Assembly (NCBI GenBank): GCA_964530555.1
Contig: CAZHBD010000003.1
Coordinates: 1-50,389, forward strand
Length of the DNA stretch: 50,389 nt
Source of the DNA: an uncultured Candidatus Saccharibacteria bacterium
GTDB lineage: Bacteria > Patescibacteriota > Saccharimonadia > Saccharimonadales > AWTP1-31
Direction: 5' to 3'
The notes beneath the pieces are model-generated. The model saw nothing but the letters and a program-made list of their open reading frames with translations, had not been told where the DNA came from and made no database searches. Positions 74-49,970 of this stretch are shown piece by piece (position 1 is the stretch's first letter; each line of letters starts with the position of its first letter). Made by a program: the position numbers and the translations under genes.

Positions 74-625
74 ATGCTTGAGCTACTGACAACTATCACC
101 CACTTTGCCGAAGCGGCTACCGAAGAAAAGTCCGGCATTGCTGTTCTTGGAATTGACGTCAAAGTTATTCTGTTGCAGGCGGGTACGTTCTTACTGCTCT
201 TCTTGATCATCAAGAAGTTTGCCCTGAAGAATATTGTCAGTACGCTCGAGCAGCGTCGTCAAACAATTGACAAGGGTGTTGAGCTCGGCCTAGAGATGGA
301 AAAGAAGAAAGCCGAGTTCGATGAAGAGTTGAAAAAGCTGCATATTGCTGCCCGAAGCAGTGCTGATGAGATTATCGCCAATGCTAACAAAGAAGCGGGC
401 GATATCATCAAGGCCGGCGAAAGCAGCGCGGCAAGCAAGGTTGACCAAATGCTGAAAGATGCCGAAGCACGCATTGAGCGTGAGATGAGCAAGGCGCGAG
501 CTGACCTCAAACACGAGATGCTCGGATTGGTGGCCGAGGCGACCGAAGTTATTATCGAAGAGAAGCTTGATGCCAAAAAGGATGAAAGTCTGATTGGCCG
601 GGCCTTAGCAAAGGTACGGGCGTGA
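74..625 (+). CDS. atpF: F0F1 ATP synthase subunit b
   Basis: 183 aa with one N-terminal TM helix (VILLQAGTFLLLFLIIKKF), then a long K/E/A-rich coiled coil. Position between c and delta. AAGAGGA lies upstream. Confidence 0.85.
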   Translation: MLELLTTITHFAEAATEEKSGIAVLGIDVKVILLQAGTFLLLFLIIKKFALKNIVSTLEQRRQTIDKGVELGLEMEKKKAEFDEELKKLHIAARSSADEIIANANKEAGDIIKAGESSAASKVDQMLKDAEARIEREMSKARADLKHEMLGLVAEATEVIIEEKLDAKKDESLIGRALAKVRA

Positions 626-1008
626 AAGTAACCAACCGTGAATTAGCTGAGTCGGTTTTGACGGATCTACGATCCGGTAAATCAAGCCAACAGGTAGCGC
701 GCAGTTTAGCCGCTTACTTCATTAGCGAGCGTCGCACTAAAGATGCCGATGCGGTTGTGCGTGAGATCGATCGCCTACTGCGCCAGCAAGGTGTGGTCGA
801 ACTCGAGGTAACTTCTGTTGCGGGAGTTAGTAGTGATATCAAGGCGGAACTTAGCAGATTGTTTACGACAGATGATAAGCAAACGATAAGCGTTCATGAA
901 ACACATGATCCGACTGTGCTTGGCGGTGTGTTAGTTGAATCGGGCGACCAACGTCTTGATTTGACGGTACGCCGACAAATACAACGGCTAAAAGGAGTAC
1001 GAGTTTAA
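622..1008 (+). CDS. atpH: F0F1 ATP synthase subunit delta (OSCP), unusually short at 128 aa
   Basis: GTG start overlaps the atpF stop (GTGA). C-terminal OSCP-like motif [29 protein letters not shown]. Position before atpA. Confidence 0.75.
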
Positions 1009-37144: not shown

Positions 37145-37525
37145 TTACGCGAGTTCAACAGTAGCACCAGCATCTTCCAATGCTTTCTTGGCGTTGTCGG
37201 CGTCTTCTTTCTTAGCTTTTTCAAGCACAGTCTTTGGCGCGCCGTCTACGAGCGCTTTTGCTTCACCAAGACCAAGACCAGTTAGGTCTTTAACAGCCTT
37301 GATAACGGCTACTTTTTGAGCGCCTGCGTCCTTAAGGACAACATCGTATTCGCTCTTTGCTTCTTCTGCTGGAGTAGCTTCGCCGCCAGCAGCAGGACCG
37401 GCAACAGCAACTGCGGCAGCAGCTGGCTCAATCCCGTATTCATCCTTAAGGATGGTTTTTAGTTCGTTGACTTCCAAAACAGTCAATTTGGTAAGTTCTT
37501 CTGCTAATTTTTTAACATCAGCCAT
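37145..37525 (-). CDS. rplL: 50S ribosomal protein L7/L12
   Basis: [22 protein letters not shown].. then an Ala/Gly hinge, then [24 protein letters not shown]. Confidence 0.95.
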
Positions 37526-37673
37526 AAAATTTTTCGCTTCGCCTTTGAGGAACACCTACGGTTTCCCTCAACGCGCCGGCAAAATGATGTGACATTTTGT
37601 CGGGCTGCTCTCTTCCCTTTTGAGGAAGGAGCAAAACGAAACTCTCCTTTCTTTAACTAATTAATTCTTAACC

Positions 37674-38198
37674 TTACGCGGCTGCCTTATCGGCAACGCC
37701 ATCTAGTAATGCATGCAAATTGCCCGACAAACCATTGGTAATGTCATTGACGGGCGAAAGTAGTGTAGCCACTACCTGAGCAATGAGTTGCGTCTTGCTT
37801 GGCAGGGTTGCCAGGGCGCTAACTTCGTCGCTGCTTAAGAACTTGCCTTCTGGGCTAATGGCGCCAACAAATGTTAGTTGCGGGTTAGTCTTGGCAAATT
37901 CAGCGAGCGCTTTAGCGGGCGCAACTTCATCCTCGGTGTTAAAAGCGTACAGTAACTGACCCTTAAGTGCGCTGGTGTCAACGTCTTTGAGGCCTTCGTT
38001 TTTCTCGATTGCTTTAATCACTAAGCGGTTTTTAACTACTTTTACCGTGGTTTGATCGGCTCGAGCATCGCGGCGGAGTTGCTGCAAAGCCTTAACGGTC
38101 GTTCCCTGGTAAGCGGCAACAACAGTTAGCTTTGAGTCACCCAAAAGGGCGGCCATTTCGTCAATAAGTTGTTGCTTCTTCTCTTTAGTAAGAGCCAT
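37674..38198 (-). CDS. rplJ: 50S ribosomal protein L10
   Basis: 174 aa. KEKKQQLIDEMAALL..TVVAAYQGTTVKALQQLR. Upstream of rplL. Confidence 0.93.
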   Translation of the reverse strand: MALTKEKKQQLIDEMAALLGDSKLTVVAAYQGTTVKALQQLRRDARADQTTVKVVKNRLVIKAIEKNEGLKDVDTSALKGQLLYAFNTEDEVAPAKALAEFAKTNPQLTFVGAISPEGKFLSSDEVSALATLPSKTQLIAQVVATLLSPVNDITNGLSGNLHALLDGVADKAAA

Positions 38199-38378
38199 AG
38201 TAGTACATCCTTTTGATTCTTTAGGTTCGCTGTTTCGACCTTCAGATCGAATTGATCCGACAGCTTCGTTACCTAAAACTAAAAAAGTCTTTGGAAAAAC
38301 GCCAAAGACTTAGAGAGTTTGTACCTCGGTAGCGAATTAAGGCTCTCACCAGCTACGGTCTTTGGTAACGATTGTTCT
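38199..38378 (-). promoter_or_regulatory. rplJ (L10) leader with terminator/antiterminator alternative
   Basis: The minus-strand leader contains CCAAAGAC (38365-38358) and the terminator AAGTCTTTGG-cgttttt-CCAAAGACTT followed by TTTTAGTTTT (38311-38272). The upstream CCAAAGAC copy can pair with the terminator's 5' arm. Confidence 0.55.
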
Positions 38379-38407
38379 AGTTTACCCCTGATGGGTCAAA
38401 ACGTCAA
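38379..38407 (-). promoter_or_regulatory. sigma70-type promoter for rplJ-rplL
   Basis: TTGACG (38407-38402), a 17-nt spacer, then TAAACT (38384-38379), immediately after the ilvA stop. Confidence 0.45.
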
Positions 38408-38408
38408 G

Positions 38409-39896
38409 CTATAAAAATAATCGGGCTGCTTTGGACCTAGCTGGTGTAAATTCCGTTCCTGCTTGCCTCAAAGCTTTTTCGAGCAAGCTGGGATTATCTG
38501 CTTCAAAGCCGATAAGAACCTTCCCAACGTCTGCACCCTGGCCACGGTAGTGAAATAAGCTGATATTCCACCTGGTGCCGATAGCCTGTAAGAAGTCGTT
38601 GAGTGCTCCGGGGCGTTCGGGGAAGTTCACCTCATAGAGCGATTCATTATTGCCAGCCGGTGCAGGGCCGCCAATCATATGTCGAACATGTTCTTTAGCG
38701 ATTTCATCTTCTGAAAAGTCATCGAATACATATCGTTTGTCCCGAAGGCTTGCCACGAATGTAACCTTGTCTTCCGGATTACTAAAAGTGATGCCTACCA
38801 GTATAACTGCATCGTTTCGATCGTTAAGTCGGTAACTAAATTCGCTGATGCTAAAACCATTAACTATATCCTGGCAAAAGCGTCGCAAGGCACCGGGTTT
38901 CTCTGGCAAGTGAACAGCAAACATTGCCTCCTTACCGCTTCCGAGTAGCGTGCGTTCTGCAATAAACTGCAAGCGCTCAAAGGTCATATTAGCGCCTGAG
39001 CAAATAGCGACAGCGACAGCATCGGTTGGTAGTTTGTAAGACTGTAAACCGGCAACACTTACAGCTCCCGCTGGTTCGACGATGCTGCGGGTATCTTCAA
39101 AGACCGCTTTAATGGCAGCGCACGTTTGGTCAATGTCAACGGTTATAACTTCGTCGACATATTTTTTTGCTAACGTAAAAGTGTTTTTACCGACCTGTTT
39201 TACGGCAACTCCATCGGCAAAAATACCGACATGGGGCAAGACAATGCGCTTATTGGCTTTAAGTGATTTTTGCATAGCGTTACTATCTTCAGGCTCAACA
39301 CCGATTACCTTTACATCAGGGCGAAGTGCTTTGATGTATTGTGCGATCCCTGTCAACAATCCACCCCCACCAACGGATATGAAGATGTGTGTTACGTCAG
39401 GTTGCTGCTCAAGTATTTCTCTGCCGATTGTTCCCTGGCCGGCAATTACGAGAGGATCGTCGAATGGATGAATAAAAGTGCGACCAGTTTCTTTGACGAG
39501 CTTCATGCAGTATTCGTAGGCGTCACTGTAGCTGTCTCCATGTAATACGACCGTAGCCCCATAGCTTTTTACGGCTTCAATTTTTATCGCCGGTGTGGTT
39601 TTGGGCATGACAATCAATGCTGAAAGTCCAAGTTTTTGCGCGCTTAAGGCTACGCCTTGAGCATGATTACCCGCGCTGGCGGCTATAACTCCGCGGGCCT
39701 TTTCAGCTTTTGATAATTGGGCAATTTTGTTGTAGGCGCCACGCAGTTTAAAGGAATGAACCGGTTGCAGGTCTTCGCGCTTGAGATAAACTTTGCGCCC
39801 CATAGCTGCCGATAATCGAGGTGCAAAATCCACAGGCGTCTCGATTGCAACATCGTACACTCGAGCAAGCAGCGTTTGTTTGACGGCTTCGTTCAC
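38409..39896 (-). CDS. ilvA: biosynthetic threonine ammonia-lyase (threonine dehydratase) with two C-terminal ACT-like regulatory repeats
   Basis: PLP lysine motif HSFKLRGA, GNHAQG and a GGGGL loop. The 495-aa length is typical of the regulated biosynthetic form. Confidence 0.93.
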   Translation of the reverse strand: MNEAVKQTLLARVYDVAIETPVDFAPRLSAAMGRKVYLKREDLQPVHSFKLRGAYNKIAQLSKAEKARGVIAASAGNHAQGVALSAQKLGLSALIVMPKTTPAIKIEAVKSYGATVVLHGDSYSDAYEYCMKLVKETGRTFIHPFDDPLVIAGQGTIGREILEQQPDVTHIFISVGGGGLLTGIAQYIKALRPDVKVIGVEPEDSNAMQKSLKANKRIVLPHVGIFADGVAVKQVGKNTFTLAKKYVDEVITVDIDQTCAAIKAVFEDTRSIVEPAGAVSVAGLQSYKLPTDAVAVAICSGANMTFERLQFIAERTLLGSGKEAMFAVHLPEKPGALRRFCQDIVNGFSISEFSYRLNDRNDAVILVGITFSNPEDKVTFVASLRDKRYVFDDFSEDEIAKEHVRHMIGGPAPAGNNESLYEVNFPERPGALNDFLQAIGTRWNISLFHYRGQGADVGKVLIGFEADNPSLLEKALRQAGTEFTPARSKAARLFL

Positions 39897-40261
39897 TTGA
39901 CATCACCTCTCGTTGCGATAGCTTCAATTTCGACAAGTAAGCTCGTATTGGCGACGCGTGGTAGTTCTTTTACCGCCACAGTGCTACGTGCTGGCTTGCA
40001 TTGTGCTTTTGCAAAAATCTCGGCATACACTTTGTTCATCGTATCGAAATACTTCATATCTGTTAAAAAAACCGTAACCTTTATAACCTGGCTCAAACTG
40101 CTCCCAACGTCTGCGAGAACGTCGCTTAGGTTTTGGAGCGCTTGCTTCACCTGGTTCTCTATATCTGTGCTTGCCATGCCGTCTTTGGTCCCTACTTGTC
40201 CAGCAGTAAATACCAGCTGCCCTACTGTTGCGCAGGGACTGTATGGTCCAAAAGTTTTCAT
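39893..40261 (-). CDS. ridA: RidA/YjgF family reactive enamine/imine deaminase
   Basis: 122 aa. GPYSPCATVGQLVFTAGQ and ARSTVAVKELPRVANTSLLVEIEAIA. 4-nt overlap with ilvA. Confidence 0.9.
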   Translation of the reverse strand: MKTFGPYSPCATVGQLVFTAGQVGTKDGMASTDIENQVKQALQNLSDVLADVGSSLSQVIKVTVFLTDMKYFDTMNKVYAEIFAKAQCKPARSTVAVKELPRVANTSLLVEIEAIATRGDVK

Positions 40262-40273
40262 AGCATCTCCTTA

Positions 40274-40308
40274 TATTAAAACGACCTCTCGCGGCTTGGA
40301 GAGGTCGT
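40274..40308 (-). terminator. intrinsic terminator (attenuator) upstream of ridA-ilvA
   Basis: The minus strand reads ACGACCTCTC-caagccgc-GAGAGGTCGT followed by TTTTAAT, then the AAGGAGA SD of ridA. Confidence 0.7.
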
Positions 40309-40327
40309 TGCTTGGATCAAATCGACA

Positions 40328-40378
40328 TCAGCCGCTGGTGCGGTTGGTAATAATGTCGATAATGATTTGTTTACCCAT
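40328..40378 (-). CDS. candidate ilv leader peptide MGKQIIIDIITNRTSG (16 aa, 5 Ile)
   Basis: ATG GGT AAA CAA ATC ATT ATC GAC ATT ATT ACC AAC CGC ACC AGC GGC TGA. It lies 7 nt downstream of a TATGAT -10 box and is embedded in alternative hairpins upstream of the terminator. Confidence 0.55.
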   Translation of the reverse strand: MGKQIIIDIITNRTSG

Positions 40379-40385
40379 GCATCTC

Positions 40386-40413
40386 ATCATACGCTGTGAC
40401 GAAGGTATGTCAA
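40386..40413 (-). promoter_or_regulatory. sigma70-type promoter of the ilv leader
   Basis: TTGACA (40413-40408), a 16-nt spacer, then TATGAT (40391-40386). Confidence 0.55.
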
Positions 40414-40416
40414 GAG

Positions 40417-40875
40417 CTATGCTGCCAACTCTCTAGCTGCTTGAGCATCAAAATCTGCCCGCAGTATCTCTATCCCCGCTTGCCTGGCATCAGCCTCTAC
40501 ACTAATGACTAGGCGCTCAGTGGGATTAGGTCCCCAGGCGATATCAAGCCCTTCGCTCGGCTGCACGCCATAGCGTTCGTCAAAATACTCACAAAAGCGA
40601 GCTACTGCGCAACGACCAATAGCGATCTGCTTACGATAGTGGGGTTCCATTTCTGGGTACCTGACAATGCCTTCGATCAAGCGACGAGTGTCTATGTGTT
40701 GTCTGGCGACCATACGGTCAAGTCGGGTTCGATGATAGGTATCTACGTCGCCAATGGTTGCGATAATATCTTCAGCTAAAAAGCCTTTTTCCTTTTCGGT
40801 GTAGGGTCGCAATTTGGGCTCGGGGACAGGAGTTGTAGGCTCCGGAAAACGTTCAGTTAAGCGATGCTTCTGCAT
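40417..40875 (-). CDS. hypothetical protein (152 aa)
   Basis: AAGGAAC lies 7 nt before the ATG. Ordinary composition, no recognisable motif. Confidence 0.55.
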   Translation of the reverse strand: MQKHRLTERFPEPTTPVPEPKLRPYTEKEKGFLAEDIIATIGDVDTYHRTRLDRMVARQHIDTRRLIEGIVRYPEMEPHYRKQIAIGRCAVARFCEYFDERYGVQPSEGLDIAWGPNPTERLVISVEADARQAGIEILRADFDAQAARELAA

Positions 40876-40891
40876 ATGATTGTTCCTTATT

Positions 40892-40924
40892 CAAAATAAT
40901 AAATCAGGCAGTTAAAGCCTGATT
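40892..40924 (-). terminator. hairpin terminator after ilvE
   Basis: The minus strand reads AATCAGGC-tttaact-GCCTGATT followed by TATTATTTTG. Confidence 0.5.
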
Positions 40925-41059
40925 CATCGGGCTGCGCAGTGGCGATAATACGCTCAGGCTTCAACTATGCTGAAGCGCAGCCCAGGAAGGCTGAGAAGGA
41001 GCAAAAGTTGCTGAGTCGTTTGTTTCACACCATCACAATAGAGGTGGGTATCCGGTTTG

Positions 41060-41983
41060 TCAAGATTTCGAGCGGGGGACGATGGTTAGCCACTGGTGTT
41101 TCGGGTCGTGCGTTGCCTGCTGAAAGCGCTTCTGGATTTCACTAAATACTTTACCAGGCGCGGTGCTGATAGATACACCATCAACTTGCTCTACCCAGCT
41201 GAGCTCAGTTGCAGTACCTGAGAAGAAGACTTCATCAGCAATATACAGTTCTGTGCGGTCAATGGGACGCTCCGCAGTTTTAATACCGGCTTGCTCTGCT
41301 AGTTCAATCACGCTCCGCCGCGTAATACCCTCAAGAATATCGGCGGTGACTTGAGGTGTGTACAACACCCCGTCTCGAACCATGAATAAGTTCATAACCG
41401 CACCTTCTCCGACCTGGCCTTCCCCGTCAAGCATAATTGCAGCATCATAACCGGCAGTTTTGGCATCGTGCATCGCTAAGGCTGCATTGACATAGCCTCC
41501 ACTCGCTTTGGTGCGCGGTGGCAATGCATTATCGCTATTGCGGACCCAAGAAGATACAGATACTTTCATGCCGCGCGACTTATCGAAGTAGTCGCCCACA
41601 GCGAGAAGGTGCAACGAAAAACTATAGTCGCCACTGATAGATGGACTGAGCGCTGTATCGCTACGGTAAATAAACGGTCGGTAGTAGACATCACTTGTCG
41701 GCTTATTCTTTTTGGTAAGCTCAACGAAAGTCTGTTTGATTTGATCGGCCCTAAACTCGTACGGAAAACGCAATATCTTGGCGCTTCGCTCCATTCGCTG
41801 TAGATGATCTTCCAAGCGGAAAATGCCGATACTGCCATCGTTTTGCAAATAACCTTTGATACCGCCAAAAATGGCGATACCATATTGCAATCCGTTAGTT
41901 GCTATTGAAATTTTTGCGTCACTAAAGGGTACGATGGTATCTTCGAAAAATGCAAATGGTAGATAATCTTGGTGGGCGGCCAT
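41060..41983 (-). CDS. ilvE: branched-chain amino acid aminotransferase (fold type IV)
   Basis: 307 aa. GLQYGIAIFGGIK, YYRPFIY, ASGGYVNAALA and GEGAVMNLFMV are class IV aminotransferase hallmarks. AAGGAGAG SD. Confidence 0.92.
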   Translation of the reverse strand: MAAHQDYLPFAFFEDTIVPFSDAKISIATNGLQYGIAIFGGIKGYLQNDGSIGIFRLEDHLQRMERSAKILRFPYEFRADQIKQTFVELTKKNKPTSDVYYRPFIYRSDTALSPSISGDYSFSLHLLAVGDYFDKSRGMKVSVSSWVRNSDNALPPRTKASGGYVNAALAMHDAKTAGYDAAIMLDGEGQVGEGAVMNLFMVRDGVLYTPQVTADILEGITRRSVIELAEQAGIKTAERPIDRTELYIADEVFFSGTATELSWVEQVDGVSISTAPGKVFSEIQKRFQQATHDPKHQWLTIVPRSKS

Positions 41984-42012
41984 AAACTCTCCTTATGCAA
42001 TAGTGTACACCA

Positions 42013-42041
42013 TTGACATACTCACATATCAGTTATATAAT
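42013..42041 (+). promoter_or_regulatory. perfect-consensus sigma70 promoter
   Basis: TTGACA (42013-42018), exactly 17 nt, then TATAAT (42036-42041), 21 nt upstream of the ATG at 42063. Confidence 0.6.
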
Positions 42042-42062
42042 AGATCTTTAATTATAACCTAT

Positions 42063-42938
42063 ATGAAACGTGGATTAGCCCTAACTGGAGTGCCTGTTGC
42101 GACGGCCGAAGATCGGCTGGTTTTACGGGAGCCACAGGCAGATGCCTGCCCTGCAAGCCGTCGGCTTGCCGAGCGCCGATTGATCGCTGACTATGTGTTG
42201 GCTGCAACGCAAGGCAGTTCAGATTATCAGGATGTTGCTCCTATAACTACAGGTGTTGATTTTGACGATACTGTTGGCAAAATTGCTTCAGGCTTTAGCT
42301 CTATCCTTGCGGATAATGCTGTAACATGGTTACGCTCGGGTGAAATGTATAACGGAGTTCCTGAGCGCGTGGCTCGCTTGGCACATATTTATCGCACGGG
42401 TGCTGGCGATCGACCGCATAAGCTTAACCGAACAATACAGCTTGTCACCCGGATCAATAAAGGGTCTCAAAAAGCTCTGCCATTATTGGTCGACCACCTT
42501 TCTGATGAAGTACGTAAAGCAGTGGCCGATGCATCCTACGAGGTTATCTGTCAGTTGGGCGGGTTGGTTGTTGTCTCTGCTAACAGAGACGTGGCTGATC
42601 CTATTGAAACAGTTCGATCGTCGAAACGGCTTGTTACTGAGCTGTCGCTAGTTAACAAGGAAACTGACAGTGTACTTCACGGCGTGTTGGGCGCTAACGC
42701 CAAACATGTCAAAGGCAAAGATTTTTATGGTGTTCGTTACGACCCTGCTCAATTTGAGCTAGATAGGCGCCGACGTCTGATAACGGTAGATCTGTCGCAT
42801 CATTTTACAGAACCACGATTCTGGGAACCAACACCTGGCTGCCCTGCACAACTTGGCGGAGGAGTTATGAAATTTACAGACGCAGTGCTGGCTAGTTTTG
42901 ATCAGCTGGGTTTGAATGATCAAGCGCTTGTAGCTTGA
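42063..42938 (+). CDS. hypothetical protein (291 aa)
   Basis: Long ORF with native-like codon usage (mostly CGN Arg). No SD and no recognisable motif. The 3' end overlaps the tmk-thyX 3' end by 47 nt. Confidence 0.55.
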   Translation: MKRGLALTGVPVATAEDRLVLREPQADACPASRRLAERRLIADYVLAATQGSSDYQDVAPITTGVDFDDTVGKIASGFSSILADNAVTWLRSGEMYNGVPERVARLAHIYRTGAGDRPHKLNRTIQLVTRINKGSQKALPLLVDHLSDEVRKAVADASYEVICQLGGLVVVSANRDVADPIETVRSSKRLVTELSLVNKETDSVLHGVLGANAKHVKGKDFYGVRYDPAQFELDRRRRLITVDLSHHFTEPRFWEPTPGCPAQLGGGVMKFTDAVLASFDQLGLNDQALVA

Positions 42939-45264
42939 GCTGGGTGTAGCGCTCAGCCGCAAGACGAGTCAGCTCAGGATCCTCACCCTGGTTCACAAAC
43001 TTCATTGCTTCTGCCAACAATGGGTGGACTTCGGCAACCTTTTCGTGCATTTGCTGGACGAGTTTGCGGTAACCCGGATGCCCTTGTGGGCTGGTGCGCA
43101 ACTCGTGGAAGTGAAAGGCCTCGCGGGCGTTGTAGGTCATTTTCCAGCGCATCTTGTGACCAAGTAAGGTGGCATACTGTGCTTCGAGAGCATAACTGTT
43201 CGCCTGCAAGTAGCTATAGAGTTCGGCACTGAGGTCAAAGCACCGTTCGTACAGGTCGCTCAGACCAGCTTCTTCTACCAGTTCCGGAACATCAAAGCCG
43301 AAGCGCGGGGTAAGCTGCTGCCACTCGAGATCGTCAACCATGCGGTGGCGTTGTAAGTCTCGGAAAATACCGTAGTCACAGATGAGGTCCCAATTATAGT
43401 GGATTTTTTCAAGTGCCCGCCCTGGCTTGTGGCGACGATTTAAACGTTCGCCCATATAAGTATGGATAACCTCTGCTTTTTTGGCATATGGCCACGCAGT
43501 AATTTCAGTCTGTAACTCTTGCAACGACAAGTTGGTATGTTCGTAGAGCATGTCAGCGACAATATCTAGTTCGTTGTGTGGCCAGTGACTGCTCAGGCGG
43601 ACTGCTTCGAAATCGCTGCTATGCTGCTGGGCGACCTCGTTGCCGGCCAGTTTCCGCATCGCCTGAGCGGTATTTGCTCGATAAGCGATCATAGCACCAC
43701 CGCGCTCTGGTTTGTCGGCTCGCTCGAGAAAGGTAGGAATGATTTTGCGCGCTTCGTCTAGGATCTGCTGACCAACTGTGCGAAACTCGGGCAGCTCTTC
43801 GCTCAGGAGATGCATGATAAGGCTTTCAAGTGCTTGTCCTGAAGCATAAATACCAACCGTTGCAGTGGTAGCCACAGGGAGTACTGGGCGAATAGCGTCA
43901 CAGGCCTGAGCGCGAGTAGCCCCTTTCCAGGCGGCATCTTGTTCTGATTTAGATACGGTCGATTGGCCCCGTACATAGTCAGTAAGCTTATGCACCATTT
44001 CGGAGTACAGGTCAAAAATAGTATCGAGCGTACGCTCGTAGCGCTCACGAACCTCTGGGGGAAAGTGCTCGGGGGTATGGTATTTGTAGTGGCCGTTTTC
44101 TTTTTGGTCAAAATAGATATAGCGGGTTGATTGTTCAAGATAGGCGGCCAGCCGGCCCCATTCGAGTTTCTTGGTGAGTAAATTGCTTGCTTTCTCGACT
44201 ACCACATGGAGTCCGACCAGCTGCTGAACGGAATCGTCCCCATAGGCAGTGATAACACGTTGCAAAAGCTTCTCGTCTTTGCCGGCTGCTCTGGCGAATT
44301 CATCGAGAATCGTAATGCGCATGTCGTCGCCACGTCGACTCAATCGGGCCATCGCAGCTGCAATTGTGGTTGGGCTTAGCTGATCTGTAAACGCATACAC
44401 GTTGTTGTCGGTGCTGGTAACGGTCTGTTCCAAAAAAGCCTTACCAGCTGGGGTCACCGAGTAATGCCCTTCTTCGTCCTTAGTGACATATTCAGTGTCT
44501 GCTGTCGGTTTTTCGCTTACTGATGGGACAGTTGCTGCAGCCGCAGCCGAACGTTTCTTATCTGGTTTCGGCGGTAATATAGGCTGAATTGTCTCCCATA
44601 GCATGTCGTTTATGATGTTAATATCGAGCAGCTGATTATTGCGAACACAGTCAATTGCTTTGAAGTCTTTCGGGAACATCTGACATAAGTCATCATACAC
44701 AGCCACACTGCGTTTTAGATGGTTGAGATCAGCTTCGTGCAGGTCGCGTTTTTTGTCCGTATAATTCCGCTCACCTTTTTGGTCAATAAGTTGCTGAGAA
44801 ACCTCTGCCGGCACTCGAAGCACGATGTTCTGATCGGGTCGAGGAATTTGCATCATAATGTATTCTAAATTATCGATCCAGATAAAGTAGCCCCGTCGCT
44901 CTTCTGTGTTGGTGAACTTGGTTCCTTGGTGAGCCATGTTACTGGCGGTAAAGCGGTTTGCCAACACGATCTTGCCTTGATTGAGAGCATCACGAATTTG
45001 TGGGGCTGCTTGGTAGCGGTCGAGAGCATAAAACAGTGAGCCGGTATACGGGCCAACTGCCTCAGCACTGCCATAGGCGCCATTCAAATATTCTTTGACA
45101 AAGTAGCTCGATGGCTCGTCATAGCGCGGAAAGTCAAAAGTTGCTATATCGTAGCCATTGTTTTTGAGGCGTTCTTCGAGTAGCTTTAACTGCGTGCCCT
45201 TGCCAGAGCCATCGCTTCCCTCGATTACTAAAAATAAACCATTATTCGGTTGCCCTAACGCCAT
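42892..45264 (-). CDS. tmk-thyX: fusion protein: thymidylate kinase (N-terminal) plus long-form flavin-dependent thymidylate synthase ThyX (C-terminal)
   Basis: N-terminus has LFLVIEGSDGSGKGTQ, DRY and the lid region typical of Tmk. The C-terminal 520 aa or so has the ThyX RHR box (FRDLQRHRMV) and NAREAFHFHELRTSPQGHPGYRKL. Confidence 0.8.
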   Translation of the reverse strand: MALGQPNNGLFLVIEGSDGSGKGTQLKLLEERLKNNGYDIATFDFPRYDEPSSYFVKEYLNGAYGSAEAVGPYTGSLFYALDRYQAAPQIRDALNQGKIVLANRFTASNMAHQGTKFTNTEERRGYFIWIDNLEYIMMQIPRPDQNIVLRVPAEVSQQLIDQKGERNYTDKKRDLHEADLNHLKRSVAVYDDLCQMFPKDFKAIDCVRNNQLLDINIINDMLWETIQPILPPKPDKKRSAAAAATVPSVSEKPTADTEYVTKDEEGHYSVTPAGKAFLEQTVTSTDNNVYAFTDQLSPTTIAAAMARLSRRGDDMRITILDEFARAAGKDEKLLQRVITAYGDDSVQQLVGLHVVVEKASNLLTKKLEWGRLAAYLEQSTRYIYFDQKENGHYKYHTPEHFPPEVRERYERTLDTIFDLYSEMVHKLTDYVRGQSTVSKSEQDAAWKGATRAQACDAIRPVLPVATTATVGIYASGQALESLIMHLLSEELPEFRTVGQQILDEARKIIPTFLERADKPERGGAMIAYRANTAQAMRKLAGNEVAQQHSSDFEAVRLSSHWPHNELDIVADMLYEHTNLSLQELQTEITAWPYAKKAEVIHTYMGERLNRRHKPGRALEKIHYNWDLICDYGIFRDLQRHRMVDDLEWQQLTPRFGFDVPELVEEAGLSDLYERCFDLSAELYSYLQANSYALEAQYATLLGHKMRWKMTYNAREAFHFHELRTSPQGHPGYRKLVQQMHEKVAEVHPLLAEAMKFVNQGEDPELTRLAAERYTQLKLQALDHSNPADQN

Positions 45265-45965
45265 CGTGCTTTTAAACCTTCAATCTCCACCGGTTTACGT
45301 CGTTTATCGCGGTAAGCCCGCGGCAGCATTTGATCTGGTGACCAATCAGCAATAATTGAGGCGAGATCGTCAGCGGAGTTGGGCTGGTACTTGCCGCTCA
45401 GCAGTTTGTATTCTTGATCAACTGGCCCGGTTTCGTAAAACACTAACTGTGCAATGCGTTCTCCGACTGGCAGTACGACGCTCTCGTGCTGGTTCATGTT
45501 GTAAATCTCCATGGTCCAGCGATTGATGTAACCGGGGTCACCCCAACCGGCATCGAGACAAACGGCTACACCGTTACGACCCCAAGTGCTTCGTGCTTGC
45601 ATCGTGCTAGTTCCTGGCGCTTTTATGCCGATAAATTCGTGGGTGTGCGCTAAAATGCGTTCACCTGGTCGCAATACAATAATCGGCTGGTCGGCCGGGA
45701 TATTCTCGAACAATTGCCGTCCGTGTTTATTAGCCCAGTCTTGATGAACCTCAGCTTTTAGTGCGCCGCTAAAATACTGATTGACAGCATACTCGTCAAA
45801 TGGATTATAAAAACCACCTTCACTCGGACGTTCGGTGCGGTAGTACCAGCTGCCAAGTGTAACGTCCACACTGCTACCCGCAATATGTTCTTCAACAAAC
45901 GGATAGAAGACTATGTGACCGTCTTTAATAGCTTGCTTAATTTGTGTGTTGCTGTATACCCCCAC
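45255..45965 (-). CDS. dcd: dCTP deaminase family protein (possibly bifunctional dCTP deaminase/dUTPase)
   Basis: N-terminal IKQAIKDGHIVFYPF..IAGSSVDVTLG. GTG start with AAGGAG 7 nt upstream. 10-nt overlap with tmk-thyX. Confidence 0.8.
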   Translation of the reverse strand: MGVYSNTQIKQAIKDGHIVFYPFVEEHIAGSSVDVTLGSWYYRTERPSEGGFYNPFDEYAVNQYFSGALKAEVHQDWANKHGRQLFENIPADQPIIVLRPGERILAHTHEFIGIKAPGTSTMQARSTWGRNGVAVCLDAGWGDPGYINRWTMEIYNMNQHESVVLPVGERIAQLVFYETGPVDQEYKLLSGKYQPNSADDLASIIADWSPDQMLPRAYRDKRRKPVEIEGLKARWR

Positions 45966-46056
45966 AAACGCTCCTTGTAAGTACTATTTTACGTGACTAT
46001 TTGACATACTGACAAGCTTACTGTTGATATTACAACTGCAGTGGAGAACTTGTCTC

Positions 46057-46800
46057 CTAGTAGCTTTTACCAAGTTGATTGCGCTGCAGGTCAGCGTAAA
46101 TCTTGTGGGCTGCCTCCCGTAACTCGGCTAGCGTCGCGTTATTCGTAATCTGGCTGTCGAATACGACTTTTGCGCGTTCGCGCTCCGTTGGGTCAGCTTG
46201 ATCGAGTACTTGGGCACCGGGACGAGTGATTTGTAATACATGGCCGCCAGCGGACTGGATAATCTGGCCATCACTCGGGAACCTGACACCCCCAATGATA
46301 AACAAGGGACAGCCATTTCTAGCGGCGTTCTGGGCGCGGCGCACCAGTTCGTCGTACCAAATACCTCGGCTGACATGGGTCACGAAGTAGCCGCCCAACC
46401 ATTGTAGTAAGGCTCGGTAGTGCTGCTTATTGTGTGACGTAATTACCTCGTGTGCTAAGGACGGCTGCTGATTAACGTGGGCGATGTACTGAAATAACTT
46501 TTCGTAGTCGGCAGGCTGTTTATTGATGTTCTGCTGTTTCAGAGTGACCTTTTCAAGCGGTACTCTGACCTGGGTGATGTGACCCAGAATGCTTGGCAGG
46601 TGGCTAAGCCAGCGATTGACACTGTCGAGGTCAGTTTCCTTGGGCTGCTCCTTGGCAAAAAACGTATTGAGCTCGTTAGCGACTTCGGAGATGACCAGGC
46701 TGCTTTCAGTCTGTTGAGCCTTCGAGTCGATCTCAGTCAAAAAATTAGCGAGTGTTGTCTTGCCGTGACCGATTGGCCCGGTAATACCAAGCAATATCAT
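46057..46800 (-). CDS. P-loop kinase, deoxynucleoside-monophosphate-kinase-like
   Basis: Walker A GITGPIGHGKTT. FIIGGVRFPSDGQIIQSAGGHVLQITRPG resembles the DVRFPNE..GG..I.V.R core of dNMP kinases. Contains an insert of about 100 aa. Confidence 0.55.
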   Translation of the reverse strand: MILLGITGPIGHGKTTLANFLTEIDSKAQQTESSLVISEVANELNTFFAKEQPKETDLDSVNRWLSHLPSILGHITQVRVPLEKVTLKQQNINKQPADYEKLFQYIAHVNQQPSLAHEVITSHNKQHYRALLQWLGGYFVTHVSRGIWYDELVRRAQNAARNGCPLFIIGGVRFPSDGQIIQSAGGHVLQITRPGAQVLDQADPTERERAKVVFDSQITNNATLAELREAAHKIYADLQRNQLGKSY

Positions 46801-46838
46801 GCGTCTATTATAGACATAACGTCTACAAACGTCGCAAT

Positions 46839-47825
46839 TTAGAGTACTTGATTGGCGTTGAGCTTAATGCTCGGACCCATCGAGGTGGTTACATAAGCGC
46901 TTTTTACGTAGACGCCCTTGACACTCGATGGCTTATTGCTCTTGATGCTCGCGAGTACAGCAACTGCGTTTTCTTCGAGCTTCTTGGCGTCAAAACTTAC
47001 TTTGCCAATGCCTAAGTGAATAATTCCTGTACTGTCAACGCGGTATTCAACTCGACCAGCCTTGGCTTCGCTAACGGCTTTGGTAACATCTGGCGTCACG
47101 GTACCGCTTTTAGGGTTAGGCATCAGACCACGTGGACCGAGTACGCGGGCATATTTTCCGAGTTTAGCCATCATGCTCGGCGTAGCAATCAGCACATCGA
47201 AGTCGAGCTGACCCTTGTCGAGCTTTTTGGTAATATCGTCTGCGCCAGCAATGTCTGCGCCCGCCTTCTTAGCCTTGGCAGCATCTTCAACATCGGCAAA
47301 AACAGCAATTCTGACAGTTTTACCTGTTCCTGCTGGTAGTACAAGGTTGTCTCGGATATTTTGGTCGGCTTGTCGTGGGTCAACGTTCAAGCGTACGTGT
47401 AGCTCAACGGCGGCATCAAACTTGGTGGTGCTTGTTTTAGTGGCGAGTACCAGAGCTTCACTGAGTGCGTACTCTTTGTCCTTAGCAACGAGTTTTGCAG
47501 CTTCACGGAACTTCTTGCCTTTGCGCTCCAGCAAACTTCGGGTCTTGGGTGCAGGCTTAGCCTTAGTTTTTTCGTCCTCGTGCGCTTTAGCCTCGGCTTT
47601 GCGCTCCTCTTTGGCTTGCTTTTCTTCGGCTTCTTTTACAGCTTTAGCGCTGCGCTTGCCGGCTTTTGCAGTCGACTTCTCAACTACTTCTTTTTCATCA
47701 CTTGCTTGACTCGCAGTGTCACGAGTTTCTTCAGTAGGCCCATCGACTACCTCCGTTTTATTGGTTACTTTTTCTTCTGCGTCGGCTGATTTATTCTTGG
47801 TTGCTGTTTTCTTGGCTTCTGCCAT
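46839..47825 (-). CDS. rplA: 50S ribosomal protein L1 with an N-terminal K/E/A-rich extension of about 100 aa
   Basis: Canonical L1 starts at ..[45 protein letters not shown] before the ATG at 47825. Confidence 0.92.
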
Positions 47826-47887
47826 CTGGTCTCCTTCGTGGTTCATGCGAGCTACTAACTCTCCCACAAACTAATAATAATTCGCAT

Positions 47888-47917
47888 ATTATACGCCAAT
47901 TTTAGTCTTTTAGCCAA
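47888..47917 (-). promoter_or_regulatory. sigma70-type promoter for rplA
   Basis: TTGGCT (47917-47912), an 18-nt spacer, then TATAAT (47893-47888), about 60 nt upstream of the rplA ATG. Confidence 0.45.
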
Positions 47918-47924
47918 TTCTTGC

Positions 47925-48200
47925 CTATTCGGATTGCGACAAGATGACCTCGCCTAATGCCACGAATAGATCGGCAGCTGCGGCTTCGAGATCTGTGGCA
48001 GCCTGACGCGCATCATAGCCAGCCAACTCTTTGAGTGTGGCAAGTAGGGTTGGAAGGTTCACAACAACTGCCATGGCAGAATTGAGAGTCGCTACTGTAT
48101 CTTCGACATCGATCTCTTGTCGGGTAGTCATGCTAGACTCGGGTGAAGTTCTTTCATTCATAGCATGCTTCTGGTTAGTTGTCTGCCGTAAAAGTGACAC
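47925..48200 (-). CDS. small hypothetical protein (78-91 aa, acidic, helical)
   Basis: ORF between rplK and rplA. The GTG start at 48200 overlaps the upstream ORF by 26 nt, and an alternative ATG lies at 48161. No motif. Confidence 0.45.
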   Translation of the reverse strand: MSLLRQTTNQKHAMNERTSPESSMTTRQEIDVEDTVATLNSAMAVVVNLPTLLATLKELAGYDARQAATDLEAAAADLFVALGEVILSQSE

Positions 48201-48420
48201 CGACTTCGCTCAGTCGGCCAATAAAATAGCCAGCTTGGTGACTGCTAAGCATGTTCTGTTGACGCACGAGTCGTACATAGTCAGCAATGCGGATCGATTG
48301 ATCTGCTAGTGCAGCATACGCAACAGAGCGATCACGCTCGGTATATAGCAAGTCTGGATGGTGCTGTTCCGCTTGAGTAACTGGCTCCACCCCTTCGCTG
48401 CTTTGACCGGAATACTGCAT
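48175..48420 (-). CDS. small hypothetical protein (81 aa) translationally coupled to rplK
   Basis: The ATG overlaps the rplK stop (TAATG at 48422-48418). Native CGN Arg codons. No motif. Confidence 0.55.
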   Translation of the reverse strand: MQYSGQSSEGVEPVTQAEQHHPDLLYTERDRSVAYAALADQSIRIADYVRLVRQQNMLSSHQAGYFIGRLSEVGVTFTADN

Positions 48421-48851
48421 TATTGCTCGATTTCGACGCCCATGCTCCGAGCCGTGCCAGCCACCATTTTCTTGACGGCAGCAACATCGTCGGTGTTCAT
48501 ATCTTTGGCTTTTTCTTCGGCAATCTCAGTGAGCGCTTGGTCGCTCAATTTCTTGTCAACCTTTTCACTGTTGGGCTTTCCCGAACCCTTCTGAATACCC
48601 AGTTTAGCTCGGATTAAATCGTCGGTTGGTTGGCTGACGACACGGAAATCCATGGTCCGATCATCATAAATGGTGATATGCGCAGTTACGGTGCCTTTCA
48701 TTTCCTTAGTGGCATCGTTAAAGGGTTGGATAAAATCCATCATATTCACACCGTACTGACCAAGAGTGCTACCAACCGGTGGTGCGGCGCTAGCTTTGCC
48801 AGCAGGAATTTTCATCTTCAGGTTAGCTTTAACCTGTTTTTTGTCTGCCAT
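48420..48851 (-). CDS. rplK: 50S ribosomal protein L11
   Basis: KMKIPAGKASAAPPVGSTLGQYGVNMMDF.. AAGGAGA SD 7 nt before the ATG at 48851. Confidence 0.95.
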   Translation of the reverse strand: MADKKQVKANLKMKIPAGKASAAPPVGSTLGQYGVNMMDFIQPFNDATKEMKGTVTAHITIYDDRTMDFRVVSQPTDDLIRAKLGIQKGSGKPNSEKVDKKLSDQALTEIAEEKAKDMNTDDVAAVKKMVAGTARSMGVEIEQ

Positions 48852-49035
48852 ACATTTTCTCCTTCGAGTATGGGACAAACCTGCGGTTTTTCCCATCGCG
48901 CCCGGCCAAAAAATGTGATTTTTAGCTCGGGCTACTCTTTTCCCTTAAAATTATGATTTGCCTTGCCGGTGAAGCGTCCGACTTGTGCGTAACCCAGTCA
49001 GTATATCAGAAACTTACCCCTGTTGTCTACTTATC

Positions 49036-49419
49036 TTACTGACGGCTTGCAATGCGATTATGGTGAGCTTCGCTGATCCAGTGGAGAGCGTGACGAACCA
49101 GTGCGAGTGCACCAACCCCAATTGGCACTGCGGAAACTTCGGCTATTGCATTACCGGATCCGATTAAACGCACTTCAACACAGGCTGCTAATACTGGCAG
49201 TGTAGAAACTGCTATAGCATCTCCCCAGCCTGCACCATGCCACACAGGTACATCTTTTCTCTCTGAACGTACATGAAATGTCCAGTCACGAGACGGCGAC
49301 ACAGTATCTTGGCCTGTTGTCTGGTTGGCTTGATCCGCGCGACGAGCACGAGCATAGATTGTAGGAGTATCAGGGACCGCTAAATCGTGAGAATGAGGGT
49401 TTGCTTCGGGGCTTACCAT
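49036..49419 (-). CDS. hypothetical protein (127 aa; hydrophobic C-terminal half) between nusG and rplK
   Basis: Strong AGGAGG SD 5 nt before the ATG, which lies 8 nt after the nusG stop. No motif. Confidence 0.55.
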   Translation of the reverse strand: MVSPEANPHSHDLAVPDTPTIYARARRADQANQTTGQDTVSPSRDWTFHVRSERKDVPVWHGAGWGDAIAVSTLPVLAACVEVRLIGSGNAIAEVSAVPIGVGALALVRHALHWISEAHHNRIASRQ

Positions 49420-49427
49420 ACAGCCTC

Positions 49428-49970
49428 CTACACTCGTTTAACTTGGAGGCTGTCGAGCTCAACCGGCGTTTCGCGCCCAAACATGTTGACCAAAACTTTG
49501 AGTTTACCCTTGGCTTCGTCAATTTCGTTAATTGAGCCATCAAAGCCTTTGAACGGTCCGTCCACGATGTTGACAACTTCGCCTTCTTTGAAGTCCATCT
49601 TGTGTTTTGGCTGAGAAAGTCCCATGCGCTTGTTGATCTTGTCCATTTCCTCTTGGCTGACTGGGGTTGGATCTGTTCCGCTCCCTACAAAGCCAGTAAC
49701 ACTTGGCGTATTACGGACAATATACCAAGCGTCTTCGCTCAGCTTCATTTGCACCAAGACATAACCCTGGAAGATACGCTTCTCGACGACCTTTCGTTTA
49801 CCATTTTTGATCTCGATCATCTTTTCTTTCGGTACGAGAACTTGGAAGATTTTATCCTTCATGTCGAGACTGTCGGCGCGTTGGCGGATGCTTTCTGCGA
49901 CTTTTTCTTCATAACCACTATAGGTGTGGATGGCGTACCATTGTTTGCTGGTGTCATAACGTTTTGTCAT
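49428..49970 (-). CDS. nusG: transcription termination/antitermination factor NusG
   Basis: NGN domain (WYAIHTYSGYEEKV) and KOW (GEVVNIVDGPFKGFDGSINEID). Confidence 0.96.
   Translation of the reverse strand: MTKRYDTSKQWYAIHTYSGYEEKVAESIRQRADSLDMKDKIFQVLVPKEKMIEIKNGKRKVVEKRIFQGYVLVQMKLSEDAWYIVRNTPSVTGFVGSGTDPTPVSQEEMDKINKRMGLSQPKHKMDFKEGEVVNIVDGPFKGFDGSINEIDEAKGKLKVLVNMFGRETPVELDSLQVKRV

Follow-up and report, generated by a model that had tools for sequence, protein, structure and literature searches.

A candidate leaderless, isoleucine-codon attenuator upstream of ridA-ilvA in a Saccharibacteria genome

How might an ultrasmall bacterium with few recognisable regulators set the output of an enzyme that commits carbon to a single amino acid? 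The question is raised by a 50,389-nucleotide (nt) stretch of DNA, here called the window, from an uncultured Candidatus Saccharibacteria bacterium. On its minus strand, the genes ridA and ilvA are preceded by a promoter, a 16-codon open reading frame (ORF) rich in isoleucine (Ile) codons and a set of competing RNA stems. IlvA is the enzyme of the Ile-committed step. Members of the Patescibacteria, Saccharibacteria among them, are ultrasmall bacteria that mostly live as episymbionts; recognisable regulators are few in them, amino-acid biosynthesis is generally limited, and to our knowledge almost nothing is known of how they control gene expression. An initial annotation of the window, made from its letters alone, read the arrangement as ribosome-mediated attenuation in a reduced genome. 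The host assignment, and with it the reduced genome supposed in that annotation, agrees with the ATP synthase alpha subunit, whose best named relatives (81-88% identity) all belong to Candidatus Saccharibacteria, Saccharimonadales or Patescibacteria. The regulatory reading gains support from the leaders of relatives and from constrained folding of three RNA states. We consider it likely that the element is a ribosome-mediated leader-peptide transcription attenuator of ridA-ilvA, which would sense the supply of charged tRNA-Ile.

In the mechanism we propose, a near-consensus sigma-70-type promoter would start the transcript at, or 1 nt before, the AUG of the 16-codon ORF, giving a leaderless message. 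The nascent RNA could adopt three mutually exclusive folds: 1:2, which joins the Ile-codon region to the stop region, 2:3, and 3:4, the predicted intrinsic terminator. When Ile is plentiful, the ribosome would reach the UGA and cover segment 2, the 3:4 terminator would form and transcription would end before ridA. When Ile-tRNA is scarce, the ribosome would stall at codons 5-10 over segment 1, and the free segment 2 would capture segment 3 as it emerges. Once segment 3 is captured, the terminator would be blocked and RNA polymerase would continue into ridA-ilvA. If the ORF were not translated at all, 1:2 and 3:4 would both fold and transcription would terminate. Most of the features by which an attenuator can be recognised in a sequence are present, the terminator and the leaderless start as predictions, and from them we infer that the mini-ORF is translated, that transcription terminates at the hairpin and that the switch depends on Ile.

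The promoter matches the consensus at 11 of 12 positions and is one of two sites with at least 11/12 on both strands of the 50 kb (shuffled sequence, 0.73). No Shine-Dalgarno motif lies ahead of the leader ATG, and the -10 hexamer stands 6-8 nt from the ATG in all seven ridA-ilvA leaders that were compared. Transcription would start at the A of the leader ATG or 1 nt earlier (40378/40379), and the mRNA would be leaderless. The same geometry recurs across the window: 13 of the 43 genes carry, with its end 5-9 nt ahead of the start codon, a TAnnnT motif (in some cases TATAAT or TATACT), where about 4 are expected by chance. Examples are the gene starts at 12826+, 18325+, 22588+, 28360- and 46800-. 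A Shine-Dalgarno-like motif is found in only 17 of the 43. Together, the TAnnnT motifs near starts and the small number of Shine-Dalgarno motifs suggest that many mRNAs of this Saccharibacteria genome are leaderless, and such mRNAs appear routine in it.

The leader ORF reads ATG GGT AAA CAA ATC ATT ATC GAC ATT ATT ACC AAC CGC ACC AGC GGC TGA, with Ile codons at positions 5-7 (40366-40358) and 9-10 (40354-40349). At the Ile frequency of the window (5.9%), at least five Ile in the 15 codons after the start would be expected with P = 0.0013, and only 3 of the 356 short ATG ORFs in the window reach five. Five such codons ahead of the gene for the Ile-committed enzyme accord with the amino-acid logic that the initial annotation had put forward. 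A regulatory role of the threonine (Thr) codons was considered and rejected, since relatives do not conserve them and for a cell short of Thr it would be counter-productive to induce an enzyme that consumes it. They are probably incidental.

For the 118-nt leader the predicted fold has an energy of -36.2 kcal/mol (z = -4.17), which none of 200 shuffles equalled. The promoter, the 16-codon ORF, the stems and the ridA Shine-Dalgarno sequence are all found on the minus strand where the initial annotation had placed them (Table 1), although each of its three stems needed redrawing. Its 8-bp (base pair) 1:2 stem stands in that AUCGACAU (40360-40353) is exactly complementary to AUGUCGAU (40328-40321), but the helix is longer, with 10 bp (AUCGACAUUA:UGAUGUCGAU) flanked on the outside by another 4 bp and on the inside by a CCGC/GCGG hairpin. 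This 1:2 hairpin encloses the UGA of the leader ORF, which lies inside segment 2. The predicted terminator hairpin is present, not with 10 bp but with a GC-rich stem of 11 bp followed by UUAAUAU or, in an alternative reading, of 9 bp followed by UUUUAAU. The antiterminator, given as a match at 7 of 9 positions, is retained as part of a larger and stronger pairing, in which GCGGCUGA-UGUCG, a stretch that runs from the penultimate codon through the stop to the fifth nt beyond it, is joined to CGAC.UC in the terminator 5' arm and, by GCGGCU:AGCCGC, to the terminator loop. Its energy is -14.1 kcal/mol in the nascent RNA and -15.3 kcal/mol when evaluated in the full-length RNA, and the three folds are comparable (1:2, -17.8; 2:3, -15.3; 3:4, -18.1 kcal/mol). 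A shuffled segment 2 equals the real pairing with a single partner in 0.1% and 0.35% of cases, and with both partners in none of 2000.

We folded the nascent RNA of seven leaders, stopping short of segment 4, under constraints that mimic a ribosome; for a ribosome at the stop codon the mask reached the stop and a further 10 nt. With the ribosome on an Ile codon, an antiterminator of about -7 to -15 kcal/mol occupied the terminator 5' arm. The exception was L167, one of the relatives described below, in which a ribosome at the first Ile codon left the arm mostly free (3 of 13 arm bases paired). With the ribosome at the stop, the energy was about 0 and the terminator 5' arm was largely or wholly free. 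These predicted states are those that the proposed switch would require.

Many relatives of the window IlvA share 66-76% identity with it, and the contigs of eleven were taken for comparison (P0003 came without DNA). The inspection of regions upstream of orthologous ilvA genes, which the initial annotation had proposed, yielded five alignable leaders, four of them Ile-rich, with a covarying 1:2 stem, and two non-homologous leaders with the same logic. The alignable leaders (L161, L163, L164, L165 and L167; IlvA 70-76% identical) occur in ridA-ilvA-rplJ synteny, each with TTGACA, 16 nt, TAnnAT, 6-7 nt and ATG. Their ORFs (MTKSMIIDIIIRTPTRG, MFTLVVAAKIISRHCSG, MSQQIIIDIIRNRTSG, MSQMIIAAIIIDPHCG and MSQRIMASIMIRFCG) have 15-17 codons, differ in length only by multiples of three and all end, always in frame, in an invariant GCGG-Y-UGA-UG, with the stop within GGYUGAUG. 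The Ile run is kept in L161, L164 and L165, as it is in the unalignable leader of L170, and the L163 peptide is a mixture of Thr, leucine (Leu), valine (Val) and Ile. The terminator hairpin is conserved in all five as (A)ACGACCUCUC...GAGAGGU(CGU) followed by U4-5. The tail reads UUUUUAAUU in L161, UUUUUAGUU in L165, UUUUUCAUU in L163 and UUUUAAU in L164 and L167, and at least five U residues follow the hairpin in three of them.

In an alignment of the window with these five relatives, the 1:2 helix and the terminator were 87.9% paired, with six pairs changed on both sides; none of 500 shuffles reached the score, and slid controls fell far lower. Five of the covarying pairs lie within the 1:2 helix, where AUCGACAU:AUGUCGAU becomes GCCGCCAU:AUGUCGGC in L165 and GCCAGCAU:AUGUUGGU in L167; the corresponding pairing in L163 is GUAGCC:GGCUAC. 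For the 2:3 antiterminator, 88.6% of cells were paired across the six sequences, compared with 25-47% when the partner columns were slid, with one covarying pair (CG:2, UA:2) that changes from C-G to U-A in L163 and L165. Support for the antiterminator comes mostly from conservation. The first base of the penultimate codon varies (AGC, CGC, UGC, encoding serine, arginine and cysteine) beside an invariant GCGG, and the terminator loop keeps (A)CCGC. The 2:3 pairing would explain both this conserved CCGC and the near-invariant terminator 5' arm, and the varying codon next to a fixed GCGG points to a constraint on the RNA at the end of the ORF and on the Ile codons in its middle. The steps of three in length, the start at the predicted 5' end, the persistence of Ile codons while their neighbours drift and the constraint on the RNA at the ORF end argue that the leader ORF is read by a ribosome. 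The genes 5' of the leader differ and are mutually unrelated (a 152-amino-acid (aa) ORF, an HMGL-like synthase, a 172-aa ORF and 83-aa ORFs), so that promoter, leader and ridA-ilvA form a self-contained unit.

Scans for IlvA in genomes and metagenomes returned mostly proteobacterial ilvA (52-58% identity) with neither ridA nor a leader; L001, L081 and L082 were the useful matches. At least four mutually unalignable leader RNA designs were seen. In L170, where the synteny is tmk/thyX...ridA-ilvA-rplJ, an unrelated leader RNA encodes MTRAIIIRIIIENPSERA, with six Ile and an IIIRIII motif. Its antiterminator GCGGGCU:AGCCCGC (7-bp GC) is overlapped by the ORF end, and its terminator is CAGCCC-GCAA-GGGCUG-UUUU. 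In L174, the leader MIKKLVIEVVNLPG, a mix of Ile, Leu and Val, starts 6 nt after a TATGGT -10 and precedes ridA-ilvB-ilvN-x-ilvA. A further type, found in L001, L082 and L168/L169, has 24-27 codons with SV(L/I)IIL or LILII and the segments GCUUCA, UUGAAGCC, GGCUUCAA and GAAGCC plus a U-run; in L168/L169 it stands ahead of ilvB-ilvN-ridA-ilvA. These sibling leaders (L170, L174 and the L001/L082/L168 types) share with the window the lineage, a neighbourhood of ridA, ilvA and ilvBN beside rplJ, and a mini-ORF of branched-chain codons whose end overlaps an antiterminator followed by a terminator. L170, L174 and L001 also have the TTGACA promoter with an ATG 6-8 nt after the -10. Unlike these features, the RNA sequences are unrelated to the window leader and cannot be aligned with it. 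The L001 type differs further in its 24-27 codons and in extra ORFs between terminator and ridA, and the L082 and L081 copies may not be leaderless.

Ahead of ridA-ilvA alone, five of six leaders (those of the alignable type and that of L170, taken together) are Ile-only, and the leader of an ilvBN operon (L174) mixes Ile, Leu and Val. L163 and the L001/L082 type, with mixed peptides ahead of ridA-ilvA, are exceptions to this match between codons and operon. The broad match of codons to pathway across unrelated RNAs is, in our view, the strongest argument for amino-acid sensing.

Three further observations concern these leaders. The spacer end (40392-40396 in the window) is G-rich in every leader promoter (window, L161-L167, L174 and L001), reading gcgTA, gggTA, gagTA or ccagTA, and the G-rich bases just 5' of the -10 may be a lineage-specific element distinct from the usual TG extended -10. 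L081 has a leader of the L001 type (MVRELILIISLPGLRFSMVEARVR plus terminator) at 388-760 (-), on the strand opposite ilvB-ilvN-ilvA, where it precedes a 68-aa and a 112-aa ORF and no ilv gene. Small ORFs (60-67 aa or longer) stand between the attenuator terminator and ridA in L001 (3437-3620), L082 (2046-2615) and L174 (1006-1209); the window has none.

Table 1. Positions of the promoter, leader elements and genes of the ridA-ilvA unit in the window (L numbers denote relatives)
Feature	Position	Strand	Details
-35 hexamer TTGACA	40408..40413	-	identical in L161, L163, L164, L165, L167, L170, L174, L001
-10 hexamer TATGAT, 16-nt spacer	40386..40391	-	7 nt (gagatgc) before ATG 40378-40376
Leader ORF, 16 codons + UGA: MGKQIIIDIITNRTSG	40328..40378	-	stop 40330-40328; 5 Ile, 2 Thr
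Segment 1, 5' arm of 1:2 helix (AAUC..AUCGACAUUA)	40351..40366	-	leader nt 13-28, overlying Ile codons 5-10; from minimum-energy folds
Segment 2, GCGGCUGAUGUCGAUUUGAU	40316..40335	-	last two codons, stop and following nt; pairs with segment 1, or with segment 3 and terminator loop
Segment 3, terminator 5' arm AACGACCUCUC (40309-40299) and loop CAAGCCGC (40298-40291)	40291..40309	-	loop AGCCGC pairs with GCGGCU of segment 2
Segment 4, terminator 3' arm GAGAGGUCGUU (40290-40280) and U tail	40274..40290	-	from folds; 3:4 = -18.1 kcal/mol
Shine-Dalgarno AAGGAG and ridA	39893..40272 (Shine-Dalgarno 40272-40267; ridA start 40261)	-	Rid-family enamine/imine deaminase, 122 aa
ilvA	38409..39896	-	biosynthetic threonine ammonia-lyase, 495 aa; TIGR01124 679.8 bits (cut-off 411.3); NF006674 696 bits

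Several observations weigh against the attenuator. The comparison comprises only six alignable sequences, and enrichment in Ile is not uniform among them, with lower counts in L167 (3) and L163 (2). Covariation of the antiterminator is thin, with a single double change and an observed value that 102 of 500 shuffles reach. The U-tract of the window leader is short (UUUUAAU), which is why a simple terminator scan missed the hairpin. In the full-length RNA at equilibrium, the terminator is favoured in every masked fold, so the model requires kinetic, co-transcriptional control, as in classic attenuators. L172 and L173 have ilvA with neither ridA nor a leader, and the leader element is thus not universal. 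RNA-labelled sequencing runs that contain window sequence (X3, X17-X19) gave Logan contigs at about 3x depth or covering rplJ/rplL only, and left the leader uncovered. Finally, the remaining genes of the Ile pathway (ilvBN, ilvC and ilvD) do not lie within the 50-kb window.

Could the same sequence arise where nothing is sensed? A constitutive 5' structure or plain terminator might insulate or stabilise the ridA-ilvA mRNA, or end a short non-coding RNA, the mini-ORF being an untranslated by-product of an AU-rich stem. Such a structure would sit well with the weak covariation of the antiterminator and with the uncovered leader in the RNA-labelled runs, and the AUU and AUC codons double as the stem AUCGACAUUA, so the richness in Ile is partly structural. 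It would not account for ORF lengths that change by multiples of three with the stop always in one motif, for an ATG held 6-8 nt from the -10 in every relative, or for the runs of Ile or Ile/Leu/Val codons that recur in unrelated leader RNAs (L170, L174 and the L001 type). A conserved terminator loop complementary to the ORF end would be needless in a plain terminator, and a terminator that separates a strong promoter from the only genes downstream of it is sensible only if conditional. We consider this explanation very unlikely. The strong promoter and the hairpin after the stop could also belong to a mini-ORF that encodes a functional small peptide and has its own terminator, with ridA-ilvA expressed independently. 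Yet the product, of only 14-18 residues, has no recognisable domain and is poorly conserved outside the Ile run: free variation is seen at positions 2-4 and 11-15, and the C-terminal residues track the RNA motif GCGG and not an amino acid. No second promoter is found between the hairpin and the ridA Shine-Dalgarno sequence, which are about 8-27 nt apart, and of all the readings considered here we give this one the lowest probability.

All attenuation mechanisms share terminator and antiterminator folds that exclude each other, and the choice between the hairpins might be made by a trans-acting factor, whether a protein or a small-molecule-binding RNA (riboswitch, T-box, TRAP- or PyrR-like). 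A binding protein would be compatible with the methods used here; no repeated protein-binding motif is evident in the leader, however. Rfam gave no leader match to E = 10 in 39800-41000 and no gathering-score match in the leader of the window, nor any match to E = 1 in the leaders of six relatives. A T-box or riboswitch was rejected on the absence of such a match and on size, the leader of about 100 nt being too short for a T-box and having no specifier or T-loop architecture. What is conserved, moreover, is what a ribosome would read: the start codon at the 5' end, the frame, the regulatory codons and the position of the stop. Control by a trans-acting factor is therefore highly improbable, more so than the plain structure, and we favour the ribosome-mediated attenuator.

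The window sequence is present in activated-sludge, sludge and wastewater metagenome runs (sequencing-run search), and the closest IlvA among species-representative genomes is that of a Saccharibacteria metagenome-assembled genome. Genes and elements on the minus strand follow one another as nusG-rplK-rplA, deoxynucleoside monophosphate (dNMP) kinase, dcd, a tmk-thyX fusion, then after a gap ilvE, a 152-aa ORF, the leader, ridA, ilvA, an L10 leader, rplJ and rplL. The ridA-ilvA pair starts 66 nt beyond the stop codon of the leader ORF on the same strand, and the 3' end of ridA and ilvA share 4 nt. RidA scores 104.8 bits against TIGR00004, slightly below the cut-off of 106.25, and its orthologues match PF01042; an exact-protein look-up returned no record of its sequence. 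The 152-aa ORF directly upstream ends in a TAG at 40419-40417 (-) and has no Pfam or NCBIfam family match. That it might be a remnant of the HMGL-like gene of the relatives was considered and dropped, the two having no similarity. A terminator-like hairpin and U-run lie between ilvE and the 152-aa ORF at 40898-40928 (-), so that ilvE is probably not co-transcribed with the leader-ridA-ilvA unit.

At 37145-49970 (-), the normally contiguous nusG-rplKAJL cluster is split between rplA and rplJ by genes of nucleotide metabolism (a dNMP kinase, dcd and a 790-aa thymidylate kinase-ThyX fusion) together with ilvE and ridA-ilvA. The adjacency of ilvA and rplJ is kept in L161, L164, L165, L167, L170, L172 and L174. 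An Rfam L10_leader (62.3 bits, 38271-38383 (-)) begins 25 nt past the ilvA stop, and an L10 leader follows ilvA also in L161, L164, L170 and L174. The L10_leader of the window is preceded by a promoter-like TTGACG-17-TAAACT (38379-38407) and contains its own hairpin and U-run (38285-38311). No terminator was found between ilvA and the L10 leader, so transcripts that pass the Ile attenuator could extend into rplJ-rplL. The sole perfect 12/12 sigma-70 consensus of the window (TTGACA-17-TATAAT, 42013-42041 (+)) faces in the direction opposite to ilvE, and about 22 nt beyond it an ATG at 42064 opens an ORF of about 291 aa (42064-42938 (+)) that has no Pfam or NCBIfam match and whose 3' end overlaps the convergent tmk-thyX gene.

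Full-text literature searches returned nothing on attenuation, whether by leader peptides or of transcription, in Saccharibacteria or Patescibacteria. A conserved Ile-specific attenuator would give the phylum a regulatory element that is concrete and open to test. It would imply that some environmental Saccharibacteria monitor how far their Ile-tRNA is charged and tune the Ile-committed enzyme to it, that their transcription and translation are coupled tightly enough for attenuation, and that leaderless initiation is a normal mode of translation in this group. The sibling leaders, unlike in RNA and alike in logic, would offer a natural experiment on the turnover of attenuators. A wider scenario, which we put forward as speculative and rather unlikely, is that the acquired branched-chain genes of Saccharibacteria are run mainly by fast-evolving leaderless attenuators and that Ile read-through may feed L10/L12. 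If true, ribosome synthesis would be tied to the Ile supply through read-through into rplJL, and this lineage of the Candidate Phyla Radiation (CPR) would combine tight transcription-translation coupling with routine leaderless initiation by 70S ribosomes.

How does the element compare with attenuators that are already described? With the trp, thr and ilvGMEDA/ilvBN attenuators of E. coli, the window leader has in common the 1:2 / 2:3 / 3:4 logic, regulatory codons in or beside segment 1, a stop placed so that a terminating ribosome masks segment 2, and a segment 3 shared by the antiterminator and the intrinsic terminator. Its fold energies match the magnitude of those of classic enterobacterial attenuators. 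E. coli leaders have a 5' untranslated region and a Shine-Dalgarno sequence, whereas the window leader shows no Shine-Dalgarno motif and is predicted to have no 5' untranslated region. In the window, unlike in E. coli, segment 2 contains the stop, and the antiterminator extends into the terminator loop. The ilvA gene of E. coli stands at the end of ilvGMEDA and is not known to be under an Ile-only leader of its own, and no Rfam leader family matches the window leader.

Outside the Proteobacteria, attenuators are described in Firmicutes, with a leucine-rich attenuator peptide for ilv-leu of Staphylococcus aureus (PMC5794164) and an ilv attenuator in Listeria monocytogenes (PMC5864092). The Firmicute ilv-leu attenuators resemble the window in being ribosome-mediated and branched-chain, with leader codons that set the amino acid sensed. 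They differ in that they are Leu-rich or mixed, act together with CodY and control long ilv-leu operons.

The closest described system is the ilvBNC attenuator of Corynebacterium. Its ilvB leader peptide is itself leaderless, with transcription starting at the start codon (PMC5784534), and mutations have been used to test its three-hairpin model of anti-antiterminator, antiterminator and terminator (PMC11857589). A leaderless leader peptide, which the initial annotation found noteworthy in a reduced genome, therefore has a precedent (PMC5784534, PMC11857589). The ilvBNC leaders of C. glutamicum and C. diphtheriae share with the window a leaderless start, which in the window is a predicted one, a short ORF of about 15 codons rich in branched-chain residues (IlvL of C. 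diphtheriae is MNIIRLVVITTRRLP), the three-hairpin scheme and a position upstream of ilv genes. The Corynebacterium leaders belong to Actinobacteria, control ilvBNC and not ridA-ilvA, and carry a mix of Ile, Val and Leu instead of Ile only; there is no sequence similarity between the two and no shared Rfam or other model. The Corynebacterium element is mutation-tested, and that of the window is a prediction from sequence. The proposed mechanism is a textbook one, and its interest would lie in the phylum, in the Ile-only specificity for ridA-ilvA and in the family of sibling leaders.

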